Assembly (NCBI GenBank): GCA_951406725.2
Contig: OX597833.1
Location: forward strand, 67,766,001 to 67,830,000
DNA from: Octopus vulgaris
Taxonomy: Eukaryota
Length of the DNA stretch: 64,000 nt
Reading direction: 5' to 3'
The first letter of the stretch is position 1; the number at the start of each line of letters is the position of its first letter. A program made the position numbers and the translations under genes. The notes under the pieces were generated by a model. That model made no database searches. It was not told the DNA's origin and worked only from the letters and a program-made list of their open reading frames with translations. Shown one piece after another: positions 1,902 to 54,005 of the stretch.

Positions 1902-2629
1902 ATGTCTTAAGCTTCACTCTCTCTCTCCCTCTCTGTCATACCCATGCACACACATATATTCATATATTCATGTATAATAAAATTCTAGAAAGATAAATAA
2001 ATAAAATAAATAAAATAAAATATATCGATGTGCATATATAAAAATCTGGCTGCATATATATCCATGTTATGTCATATGCATCATACATACGGGTATATAC
2101 TCTTGTTTTCTTTTCTTTCCTACACCCATTCACACATACGTGTACTGTGAAACTATAAATCGCACTCTTGTCCCTTAGCATACATATACGCACACATATA
2201 CGCACACATATATGCACACACCACATAAGCATACACAGATGCAAACATATACACACACAGAGTGAAGTTTATACACAATTGCATACTCACATATGCGCAC
2301 TCGCATACTTTCAATTATAACAACTACCCGTATTCTCTTACCTGTTGCACATCTCTTTCTGTCTGTCTCTGTCTGTCTCTTCGTACACACACACATACAC
2401 ACACACAGATATATACACACATCCCAAAAGTATAGCAGTACTCCCTGTATAAGAGGAGACCATCAAATATACACACATTTTTCTCTCTTGCTTTCCCGGT
2501 CCATCTCACACAATCTGCCTCTCTCTCTCACACACACACTTTCTCTATCACTTTTTTCCCCTCTGTCTTTCTCTCGGTCGGTCACTCTCTCTGTCTCTCT
2601 GTCTCTCCCTCTCTATATGTATATATACA

Positions 2630-2743
2630 TACACACACACCTCAATATATATATATCACCAACTCATTAGGACCTACAAGCTACCCACACACGCACTCAC
2701 ACACACATATATACACACACACACTTTCTCTATCACTTTCTCC

Positions 2744-2774
<31 letters not shown>

Positions 2775-2791
2775 GTCCATCTACCTATCTA

Positions 2792-2833
<42 letters not shown>

Positions 2834-2838
2834 ACTCT

Positions 2839-2884
<46 letters not shown>

Positions 2885-2950
2885 CACCAACTCATTAGAA
2901 CCTACAAGCTACCCCACACACACACGTACTCACACACACATATACAAACA
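2630..2950. repeat. Local tandem duplication embedded in microsatellites
   Basis: atcaccaactcattag(g/a)acctacaagctaccc occurs at ~2655 and ~2883 with the same flanking (TA)n/(CA)n context. Confidence 0.8.
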
Positions 2951-2966
2951 CGCACACACACACACA

Positions 2967-2997
<31 letters not shown>

Positions 2998-3081
2998 CGG
3001 TAACAATCGCTTCTCGCATCTGCTCTCTGCCAGTTTCCCTCGCGTCTATTCCTCTCTGCTCCGCTAGATTCTCTCTCTCAG

Positions 3082-3120
<39 letters not shown>

Positions 3121-3290
3121 TTCTCTCTCTCTCTCTCTCTCTGTGTGCGCTGATCTCTGCCGTTCTACCGATTCCTCTTCCATTCTCACTTTCAACAGGC
3201 AGCACCAACTAAACACACATCAACAAATATAAAATCATACACTCGCAACAGACACAGAAACACCATACCATATATACACCATTATACACT

Positions 3291-3328
<38 letters not shown>

Positions 3329-3811
3329 ATATACAAGTATATATACTGTTTTTTTTTTTGCTTTTGTCTTTGGATTCTCATTAACCGTTTCCAAAAACCA
3401 CACCTTATATTCTCTATCTGCTCCGTCTCAGCCTCCGACTTCATCACCCAGCATCTTCTTCCACCGACTCTTCTTCTTCCTCCTCCATCTCCTCCTCGTT
3501 TCTCCTCATCATCATCATCGCCCTCCTCCTCCACCTCCTCCTCCTCCTACTCCCGTTGCTACCACATGACAGTCACATGACCTACCTACCTACCTACTGT
3601 GTGAGTTTCTGTGCTTTTTAACGGTTTTGTAAAAGAAAGTTTTCACGACTAACAAAATTCTAAAACGATCAACAAACATGACGGGCTTGTTAAAAGTTGG
3701 ACAAATTGTAATAATCCTGCTATTGAGCCAATTCAACGTTTTTTCGGGTGAGTTAAAAATACATATTAAACAAATTCCTTCAATTTTTTTTTTTTTTTGC
3801 AAATTAATAAC

Positions 3812-3857: not shown

Positions 3858-4046
3858 GCGGTGCCCCAGCATGGCCGCAGACCAATGTCAAAAAGAAATT
3901 TAAAATGTAGTAAAAAGTGTTTAAAATCTATAAAAATCTCTCTCTCTCTCTTTTTTTTTGCGGTGCCCCAGCATGGCCGGCCGCAGACCAATATCAAAAG
4001 AAATTAAAAAATGTAGTAAAAAGTGTTTTAAAAATCTATAAAAAAA
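3853..4046 (+). repeat. Tandem ~105-bp duplication containing a SINE/LINE 3'-tail motif (GCGGTGCCCCAGCATGGCCGCAG)
   Basis: Two near-identical units at ~3853 and ~3955. The motif matches the tail of SINE family 1 and an inverted copy at ~5120-5160. Confidence 0.7.
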
Positions 4047-4099
4047 TTTTTTCTTCTTTAAAATTTTGTTTGCATTACTTTTAAGTAACTTCATCATTA

Positions 4100-51424: not shown

Positions 51425-52048
51425 GGATCTTTTCCTTTTGAACGGCAGATGTCAACACAATTTCTAGTTAACTAAACACTTTTAAACTTCGTATACTGGT
51501 AGAATGTGTTTATAAAACATCATTTTCTCTTGGTTTTATTGAGAAAATTCTATAGTTTGTAAGATATTTCGTCTGAAAATCCGAGCATTTCGGCAATTTT
51601 AACCAATCGATTACCTCCATTCAACTAAAATCATTTGCTGCGTCTAAAACTGAGACAACATCCTGTTACTAACCCTAACCCTAAATTTTTTTTCTTAATT
51701 GTTAAATTAATTTAATTCCATTGCTTTAGTTTTGTTTTACATGCGTAACAATTAAATTAATTTAACAATTAAGAAGAAAAAAATTTAGGGTTAGGTTTAG
51801 GGGGGAGGTTTAGGGTTAGTTACAGGATGTCTCAGTTTTAGACGCAGCAAATGATTTTAGCTCAAAAGAGAGCATAGGATTGGTTAAAATTCGAAAAATT
51901 AAACTACGTTAAACAAACAAATTACAATTTTCTCAAGAAAGCCAAGAGAAAAAAATGTTTTATTTTGACACATTCTACCAGTATACGAAGTTTTAAAGTG
52001 TTCATTTAGTTAACTAGAAATTGTCTGCCGTTCAAAAGGAAAATATCC
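51425..52048. mobile_element. Merlin-like non-autonomous fold-back DNA transposon
   Basis: Begins GG and ends CC; perfect 8-bp TSD TCATTATG (51417-51424, 52049-52056); ~285-bp imperfect inverted arms with internal TTAGGG-like repeats. Confidence 0.85.
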
Positions 52049-52322
52049 TCATTATGTTCTAAAATAAGTCGAAAGGTAAGCTACTATAAATCGGCACGAA
52101 CTTTCCGGACAACCCAATATTTCCCCCATTCTATCTGTCATTCTCTCTCTCTCTCTATATATATATATTGTTATATAGATACGTACAGTATGTTTTTCAA
52201 ACAGTTCCAGATTTTGACACTGCGTCTGACCTCATCTCTGTATATTTGGCTTTGTATCTAAATATCTTGCAAACAACTTGCACATGCAAGTGCTACCAGT
52301 TAAAAGCTCCGTATATCGGAAG

Positions 52323-52434
52323 CTAGCAAGTGTATGGGGTCATCAGGAGAGAATGCGCGCCGTTTCGGGGCCTACCTCTCGACGGCATCAATGCGCACCG
52401 GCCCCCCTCACTGATATGAGGCCCCGCTTGCTAG
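52323..52434 (-). ncRNA. Structured 3' UTR RNA: rearranged (non-circularly permuted) hammerhead-like fold
   Basis: GTC, GAAAC and CTGATGA each flanked by perfectly complementary arms (see findings). Confidence 0.72.
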
Positions 52435-52454
52435 ATCAGCTGGTTATGATGAAC

Positions 52455-54005
52455 TCAATATACTTCTAGCCATCGCTCATCGTCTCTTTTTAACCATATC
52501 CAGTGGCTAGCCTTCTCCACTGTAGATTGGATATCAGTCATGGTGGTATTGACTTTACGATGAGTTAGGCCTAACGATAACAACAGTCGTCTCACGCTGT
52601 GTCCTACAAACCCTCTACATCCGACTTCGATAGGAAAATGTTCCGCTTTCCAGCCTGCGTCTTCATATTCCTCGAGGAGGTTTTCATAACGGTTTAATTT
52701 TCGAGCTCGAGCGGCGTCCATATTATCTTCGTGAGGAACCGTTAGCTCGACTATATTTAAAACTTTCTTTCTTTCACACCACATCAAAATATCTGGTTTT
52801 TTCGAAACTGGGATGGGAAAGAAAACCTGGCACCCAGGTAAATCTGCAGTTACCTCCCAATAGTCGTTCCACTTTTCATTTTTCTCAGGAAGTTTCTTGG
52901 TCTTCTTCTTGAAACGGATCTGCTGACCTGGTCGCACGAAGGTAATGAATTCTCTTGATGGTACTTTTAACGATTTTTCCTCAGTGTTGTTGAGATGAAT
53001 TTGATTCTTTATAGCATTGAAGATAACCTTAAGGACCAAGTTGTGCCTCCATGTGTACCTGTTCAATGCTAACGAACAGTTGGAAAGAATATGTTTTAGT
53101 GTACCGACTTTTCCACATTTGCAGACGTCATTCTCTAAGACGTTCCATCTTACTAGATTCGTAGGTGATGGCAAAACATCATAAGATGAACGAATCAGGA
53201 AACTCAGCCGAGATGTTGTCCACTTCCACATCTCATCCCAACTTATCTTCCTCTCAACAACATGTTCTTCCCATCTCGTCATCTGACCTTGATGAACACA
53301 TCGGATCAAATGAAGCTCTCTTCTCTCTGCTTCTCTTGTTTTGACGCTGTTGCTAACAACAGATCTGCGTTCACACGGCATCATGCTTGCAAACGGTCTG
53401 AACTGATCCGCGCCAAAACCAAATCCTTTCCGATGGTTCTGCGTTGCTCCCACCATATCTCTGTGTGTAAGAGAAGACAAGATGTTGTCAGTTTCTGCTT
53501 CTGCTTTCCACTTCCTGGCTGTTTTCACCTCTGGTGGGTTACGCCTGATTTCCATATCCTTCGATTCTCTCAGCATCATGACCGTCCGTATCTTCCCCAA
53601 CTTATATATTTCGACTATTGATGCTATTGGTAACTGCAACGAACCTCTTTACGATAAAGAGCTGAGCTGTTCAACATACGAGGTAGACCTAGCCACTTTC
53701 TAATGAACACATTACATTTTTGTTCGATCTTTTCAACTCGTGACAATGCTACTTCGTATATTAAAAGTGGCCACGCAAGTCGCGGGTACAGGCCGAACTG
53801 CAAGCACCAAATTTTATATTTACCTGGTAACTTCGAAACATCAATCGCTGATAACCCAGCCTCGGCCTGTTTCATAATTTCAATCCCACGACTTCTATCT
53901 GACAATGTTCCAGCGTATACTCGTCCCAAGCTCTTGACGGGCTCTTCCTTGACTGTTGGAATGCTTTCTTCCGATATTCGAAATTGCTTGTTGATATCTT
54001 TCTTT
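52455..54005 (-). pseudogene. HERO-type ORF C-terminal half (RT end/thumb, zinc knuckle, RLE) with one frameshift near 53647
   Basis: Frame 53624-53929 joins frame 52455-53639 at ALYRK/GSLQLP; CKCGKVGTLKHILSNC, YTWRHNLVL, KPDI..ELTVP..KLNRY, PIEVGCRGF, WIWLKR. Confidence 0.9.

Follow-up and report, generated by a model that had tools for sequence, protein, structure and literature searches.

The window (the whole 64,000-nt stretch of Octopus vulgaris DNA analyzed here) carries a young, 5'-truncated copy of a HERO-like retrotransposon, whose 3' untranslated region (UTR) holds a hammerhead motif (Table 1). The copy is 99.77% identical to the unit of locus L034, and the ends of the unit were defined from 30 other copies. 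There are 2,391 first-look candidate copies of the repeat, the best 40 at 98 to 100% identity. Full units contain one frame of about 1,110 amino acids with a zinc finger, a reverse transcriptase (RT), a CCHC knuckle, and a restriction-like nuclease. In L034 this frame is 1,112 amino acids long, with a Pfam match to RVT_1 (E value, 5e-19) and a weak one to the zinc finger (E value, 0.22); the nuclease motif was recognized by eye, with no match in Pfam, and Pfam found nothing in the window's own open reading frame (ORF) pieces. Copies stop at one 3' site, 118 nt beyond the predicted cut, without a poly(A) tail, and their 71 distinct AT-rich 3' flanks show no strict target site.

The original prediction named a HERO-type host, and the element is indeed HERO-like. 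It has the single-ORF layout of the HERO clade (N-terminal zinc finger, RT, CCHC, and restriction-like endonuclease), its RT segments clearly resemble by eye those of HEROTn and HERO-1_BF (supplement of PMC7650587), and it shares with this clade the nonspecific insertion described in PMC4640811. Named protein relatives, at 34 to 39% identity, come from fishes and lancelet. The best structural relatives of the protein are R2 and LINE-1 proteins, the nearest solved structures being those of R2, and a GIY-YIG domain has no Pfam match in it. Hero elements have been inventoried by Fell et al. 2025, as cited in PMC13580325.

Two features of the unit outside the motif deserve mention. The 5' UTR of L034 (about positions 3920 to 4050) contains series of small hairpins that have a GGAAAGAC loop; they also occur in L084, L088, L095, L098, L107, and L129, are conserved in both clades of the tree described below, and are candidates for protein binding or cap-independent translation. 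Six copies (L054, L055, L056, L064, L067, and L072) have internal deletions, yet retain the 5' UTR and the ribozyme-bearing 3' end, and are possible nonautonomous derivatives.

Table 1. Features of the retrotransposon copy and its hammerhead motif in the window, and of a second motif in related loci
Feature	Positions	Strand	Remarks
5'-truncated young HERO-like retrotransposon copy	52262..53985	-	Unit positions 2013-3737 of the 3737-nt unit; no poly(A) tail
3' part of single ORF (end of RT region, CCHC knuckle, restriction-like endonuclease)	52455..53985	-	One-base frameshift near 53648
Whole hammerhead domain	52323..52434	-	Outer 8-bp extension of P0, 52434-52427 with 52330-52323; varies among relatives
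P0, 5' strand	52422..52425	-	Pairs with 52339-52336, directly 3' of A9; double changes in 4/4 pairs
Inserted hairpin H	52406..52421	-	52421-52417 with 52410-52406; runs directly into G10.1
Stem II, 5' strand	52400..52405	-	G10.1 = 52405; double changes in 4/6 pairs
Linker helix, 5' strand	52393..52398	-	Pairs with 52358-52353; double changes in 5/5 counted pairs
Block S: stem III 5' strand, GUC triplet, stem I 5' strand	52376..52386	-	Predicted cut between 52381 and 52380
Block G: stem II 3' strand, GAAA (52366-52363), stem III 3' strand	52359..52372	-	
Stem I 3' strand, CUGAUGA (52346-52340), P0 3' strand	52336..52351	-	
3' terminal segment with two small hairpins	52262..52322	-	Ends at the fixed site, the presumed start of reverse transcription
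GGCA...GCTCAAC motif	L107:4232-4318; L118:4130-4215; L119, L122, L136, L141, and four more		Sister-clade 3' UTRs

Wiring of the hammerhead motif

The 112-nt domain agrees with the original description of its sequence and begins 20 nt past the ORF stop at 52455. It has the complete set of hammerhead core bases and six helices; core positions carry the customary hammerhead numbers (A9, G10.1, C11.1, and so on). Along the RNA the order is P0, hairpin H, the stem II 5' strand, the linker helix, the site block, the GAAA block, the linker helix again, stem I with CUGANGA, and P0. As had been proposed, A9 is joined to G10.1 neither directly nor through 1 to 2 nt: the strand runs from A9 through P0 and H to G10.1, and from C11.1 to G12. 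The bases 3' of CUGAUGA are unable to pair with those 5' of GAAA and instead covary with P0. The inferred arrangement is a four-way junction, with stem II still stacked on the core and P0 stacked on H.

The noncircular order of site, GAAA, and CUGANGA, which the original prediction set apart from types I to III, is that of the validated type SGC hammerhead (HRIMA-1; Eckert et al. 2023, PMC10085705), described there from metatranscriptome contigs and as found in no known organism's genome. The two share the S-G-C block order, the full core, a stem I-to-stem II link of about 3 nt, and an extra helix that connects the far sides of these stems and abuts stem III; our linker helix is the equivalent of this stem I-II interaction helix. 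In type SGC, as published, CUGANGA continues straight into stem II, leaving block C uninterrupted, whereas here the stem II-side strand and the partner of the extra helix lie at the 5' end, P0 and H bridge A9 and G10.1, and the motif resides in retrotransposons. With the CUGANGA/stem II block opened at A9/G10.1 and closed by a four-way junction, the present wiring is a circular permutation of SGC. What is new, then, is the broken block and the retrotransposon setting. Departures of a lesser kind are on record, namely, one base bulging out on the 5' side of stem II (PMC4209133) and small core insertions (PMC3088659). We found no report of a HERO ribozyme, of HERO partial tandems, or of the present wiring in the full-text literature searched, which covers few subscription papers or Repbase Reports.

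Rfam returns no hammerhead match in the window, nor in 17 motif-bearing loci. Published permutation searches took CUGANGA and its flanking stems as inseparable (PMC10085705), an assumption that makes the present wiring invisible to such searches and to Rfam. The folding energy of the window motif is not significant by itself (z score, -1.70; 12 of 200 shuffles equally good), and stems I and II receive no weight in a nested fold because they are pseudoknotted. Elsewhere in the window, a near-perfect palindrome of 230 nt with long inverted arms (51627 to 51859), probably a MITE, gives rise to spurious microRNA matches in the Rfam search.

Conservation and covariation in relatives

Relatives were collected from metagenome contigs by protein similarity, with no regard to the RNA motif; 368 were confirmed, of which the best 80 were used. 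For 77 of these (the other three loci have no sequence beyond the protein match), a descriptor of the full architecture was applied, and 19 match it within 450 nt of the ORF end with scores of 28 to 46; 467,861 nt of control sequence gave two matches, with scores of 24 and 22. When the core was held fixed and the remainder shuffled, 147 of 150 shuffles had no parse, and the best score was 24. A covariance model built from seven sequences added L106, L114, L077, and L093 (E values, 9e-9 to 3e-4) and found nothing in 80 loci among the loose core-pattern matches in IMG/VR (at least 123 stretches).

Across the same seven sequences, 96.1% of cells are paired, compared with 45 to 55% for slid partners, a comparison that favors the proposed structure in that it was derived from these sequences. 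Double changes occur in 18 of 30 pairs and in every one of the six helices, including 2/5 pairs in each of stems I and III (Table 1 gives stem II), and none of 500 shuffles reaches the observed covariation. The pair counts are limited to seven close relatives plus the descriptor parse because automatic alignment of 24 diverse motifs misregistered upstream of GAAA.

The parse set comprised the window and 25 relatives, whose rows are related rather than independent; L079 (a near-duplicate), L096 (at a contig end), and L094 and L101 (decayed cores) were omitted, and the core of L083 is also decayed. Twenty-five of the 26 regions parse. With position 17 left free, the cleavage triplet is GUC in 12, GUA in 10, and GUU in 3, and never GUG. 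CUGANGA, GAAA, G16.2/C15.2, and a non-G at position 17 are present in 25/25, and the G10.1-C11.1 pair is present in 24/25, the exception being L099, which is mismatched there and probably misparsed. No unpaired bases occur at the three crossovers in 20/25, a count to be read with the parser's preference for zero on ties; the registers of L078 and L099 are probably wrong. A quick tree restricts the motif to a clade of 41 rows (SH-aLRT, 96), with none among the other 40 rows. Within the clade, 30 rows have the motif (four labeled by eye), 7 have 3' UTRs of 127 nt or less, and 4 have a long 3' UTR with no motif match.

These results uphold the core of the original prediction: the fold is a noncircularly ordered hammerhead with a full core, the anticipated covariation and invariant core are found in the 3' UTRs of relatives, and the descriptor and shuffle controls bear out the claim that such helices are unlikely by chance. 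All seven helices described for the window map to it, but the outer 8-bp clamp is not a conserved helix of its own; in relatives it lengthens the closing helix P0 to a variable degree. We conclude that the motif is a conserved hammerhead fold, strongly supported as a structure, and we regard catalytic activity as very probable.

Partial tandems and 3' ends

The motif occurs twice, one unit apart, in 4 of 12 stretches fetched for long copies. The tandem counts cover the best 30 loci with a 5' UTR among 68 candidates (40 scored); L060 and L063 appear to be a single locus that was duplicated. Twenty-five of the 30 run upstream into the exactly joined 3' end of a partial copy, 18 reach upstream past the cut site, the upstream halves extend to as much as 1.67 kb, and no copy has its start at +1 or at the cut. 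In all 12 distinct contexts the two copies are joined in register. In full-length insertions the motif is also found shortly before the 5' UTR of the following unit.

Some variants are private to both halves of their own tandem (four in L156, three in L155, two in L157, and one in L159), as judged against roughly 50 to 70 other aligned segments, and could instead reflect unsampled subfamilies. In L032, L034, and L035 the same G run has five G in the upstream half and six in the downstream half. This asymmetry fits a shared linear tandem source; the same run, a homopolymer and hence error prone, also differs in two other tandems. At L033 we observed two inverted copies with a common variant, an arrangement resembling the 5' copies in inverted orientation known from Penelope elements.

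Among 71 distinct 3' ends, the flanking sequence agrees with base 1 of the next unit in 38 (background, 15%), with base 2 in 49, and with base 3 in 47; there is no match beyond, and the matches at bases 2 and 3 also fit AT repeats. The fixed 3' end without poly(A) and the match of 1 to 3 nt suit a template that continues into the next unit; an endonuclease or target preference alone could also produce them.

Among relatives, the 3' UTR continues into an ORF start in L084, L088, and L098, and terminal repeats are present in the assembled L082 and L083, so the tandem arrangement is common to them. Contigs of the hammerhead-less relatives L107, L119, L133, L136, L142, and L149 also have terminal repeats, and the tandem habit may therefore span the whole group.

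Three accounts of these structures were rejected. Self-targeting, in which new copies insert before old ones, disagrees with the lack of +1 starts, the loose targets, and the private variants common to tandem halves. A ribozyme that makes the DNA 5' end, as in R2, disagrees with the 18 of 30 copies that extend past the cut. Finally, the ribozyme does not make the 3' end, which lies 118 nt beyond the cut. Two of the original suggestions for the main role, processing of the 3' end and a silent fold for recognition, accordingly find no support; the motif also precedes the next unit's 5' UTR, as in Penelope pseudo-LTRs.

Truncations at the predicted cut

5' truncations were sought with a pattern of even sensitivity over 17 positions around the cut. 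The 13 matches in this 17-nt interval comprise 10 truncations and 3 deletions or ambiguous cases, and 6 of the 10 truncations start precisely at the first base past the predicted cut; 496 copies cross the site intact. Other search patterns yielded three further mini-copies starting at the cut, all with unrelated flanks, for nine such loci overall. Neighboring intervals, with matched strings read by hand, contain 13 truncations in 42 matches and 11 in 18, with a maximum of 3 to 4 per position. In a ribozyme-free interval 240 nt from the end, 7 truncations (of 28) fall at one position, a T that is inflated by chance matches to AT-rich flanks and where the local rate is about threefold higher. 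As hot spots can arise without a ribozyme, Poisson P values for the cut-site pile-up (1e-4 to 1e-5) are too small, and the pile-up is suggestive, but only suggestive, of cleavage in vivo. Among public sequencing runs, none with a match is recorded as RNA, and four that were compared, available as contigs only, show no pile-up of ends; these data carry no weight either way.

Two local peculiarities accompany these counts. Between unit positions -244 and -232 (about 52506 to 52494 in the window), 5' truncation points reach about three times the density found near the ribozyme, and the hot spot at -240 lies among them. A recurrent deletion of 12 to 13 nt (28 of 42 matches; about 52409 to 52397 in the window), with variable junctions, removes the 3' side of H and the 5' strand of stem II; it is probably an RT skip between short repeats and would be expected to disable the ribozyme.

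A proposed life cycle and its alternatives

Penelope-like elements, in the published descriptions (PMC4209133, PMC8557442, PMC11167929), also place a full unit after a partial copy with a ribozyme in the repeat and insert into AT-rich targets; their internal start of reverse transcription and their proposed circular template may have counterparts here. They differ in their enzymes, a telomerase-like RT with a GIY-YIG nuclease, and in their hammerheads, which are of type I and often depend on dimers; the HERO element combines a LINE RT and a restriction-like nuclease with a complete, monomeric, pseudoknotted ribozyme. The element has the Penelope-type partial tandem with a ribozyme in the repeat and lacks the Penelope-type enzymes.

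We somewhat favor the reading that an active hammerhead of the new wiring drives a Penelope-like life cycle in this retrotransposon. A partial-tandem locus would be transcribed through two ribozymes 3.74 kb apart, both would cut after GUC to release a unit-length RNA, and the ribozyme or a host ligase would rejoin the ends into a circle. The element protein would then nick an AT-rich target and prime internally, 118 nt downstream of the joint, aided by the 1- to 3-nt match between target and template. RT would cross the joint, mostly stop early, and sometimes exceed one turn, which would rebuild the partial tandem, and the few RNAs left unjoined could yield the 118-nt mini-copies seen at nine loci. 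A circular template was already proposed for Penelope elements (PMC4209133, PMC6765202). Cutting, rejoining, internal priming, and rolling would together explain the exact junctions, the variable upstream halves, the variants common to both halves, the missing poly(A), and the mini-copies. The caution in the original prediction that cleavage cannot be obligatory before reverse transcription does not follow if cut ends are rejoined. Against this reading stand the truncation hot spot that arises without a ribozyme, the 5G/6G asymmetry, the other possible origins of the private variants and of the 3' match, the four clade rows without the motif, and a study of a Penelope element reporting that insertion in vitro survived mutation of the ribozyme, that the template was mainly unprocessed RNA, and that no reads ended at the site (PMC11167929).

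The most serious alternative, which we nevertheless regard as unlikely, is that the ribozyme cuts to free an uncapped 5' end before the 5' UTR for cap-independent translation, while uncut tandem read-through RNA serves as the insertion template and template jumps renew the tandems. The copies that cross the site intact, the G-run asymmetry in three tandems, and the conserved repeated hairpins of the 5' UTR are as it would have them, as are the predominance of unprocessed template in the Penelope study (PMC11167929) and a virus in which hammerhead cleavage is described as promoting cap-independent translation (PMC13725137). Read-through templates, though, could only shorten the upstream half in each round, and halves of 1.67 kb, together with private variants shared with the tandem's own downstream unit (also at position 2625 of L032), imply that renewal from a single unit is frequent.

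A decidedly less probable variant holds that the RNA is cut and never ligated, stems I and III keeping the ends of the linear monomer together while RT jumps the nick. Template jumps usually add or lose bases, whereas the joint is crossed base-exactly in nearly all copies, and on its way to the nick RT would presumably strip stems I and III of their 3' strands. The existence of mini-copies ending at the cut speaks for this variant, as does the ability of R2-type RT to copy noncontinuous templates, given in the title of reference 106 in PMC6765202.

Very improbable is a role as a hammerhead-like fold without catalytic activity, to which the element protein would bind in order to select its RNA. 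Such a role would suit the unlinked A9 and G10.1, the decayed cores of L094, L101, and L083, and the slow rates reported for type SGC ribozymes (0.007 to 0.13 per min; PMC10085705). It leaves unexplained why position 17 is C, A, or U and never G in 25 regions while the stems turn over freely, why truncations pile up at the scissile bond, and why a sister lineage has an RNA of a different ribozyme class at the same place. A view of the helices as accidental pairing within a GC-rich UTR, which the folding z score of only -1.70 and the silence of Rfam might suggest, can be dismissed, as it is contradicted by the covariation in relatives and the descriptor controls, on which, rather than on folding energy, the case against chance stands.

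Returning to the circular template, we tentatively extend it, at somewhat less than an even chance, to HERO-like elements in general, as LINEs that would move via ribozyme-made circular RNA, cut by a hammerhead or, in sister lineages, by a twister or other ribozyme. If this is true, the circle must serve as both uncapped message and template. Until now, partial tandems along with internal priming and a possibly circular template counted as traits of Penelope elements; a restriction-like-endonuclease LINE with signs of the same traits provides a second system for the long-open circular-template model. An RT priming internally and able to copy across a joint in its RNA would be of interest for RNA-templated gene insertion, and for RNA biochemistry the motif offers a natural hammerhead core put together across a four-way junction in a widespread family.

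Two further systems invite comparison. R2 with its 5' HDV-like ribozyme (PMC6765202) is likewise a single-ORF restriction-like-endonuclease retrotransposon with a self-cleaving RNA (predicted in HERO), but it is described as cutting once, at its own 5' end, from an rRNA cotranscript. Non-LTR retrozymes (bioRxiv 10.64898/2026.07.22.740005) share tandem units, one hammerhead per unit, and a rolling-circle model; as described, they are short and noncoding with type I hammerheads, unlike the autonomous 3.7-kb HERO element. Because the HERO ribozyme lies wholly within the 3' terminal 175 nt, every copy carries it, even when truncated, and short dead copies that keep the whole ribozyme leave hundreds of potential cut sites dispersed across the host genome.

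Other structured RNAs in sister-clade 3' UTRs

Elements of the sister clade, which lack the hammerhead, have other RNAs in their 3' UTRs. A type-P5 twister-like RNA lies at L116:4014-4070 (E value, 3.5e-4; 28.3 bits, below the family cutoff of 37.6). It also appears in L115, L120, L125, L145, and L151, being weak in L120 and giving no match in L145. Ten loci have a second motif (GGCA...GCTCAAC; Table 1) with covarying stems and a likely pseudoknot. It has no match in Rfam, resembles the twister-sister core, and may be an undescribed ribozyme.
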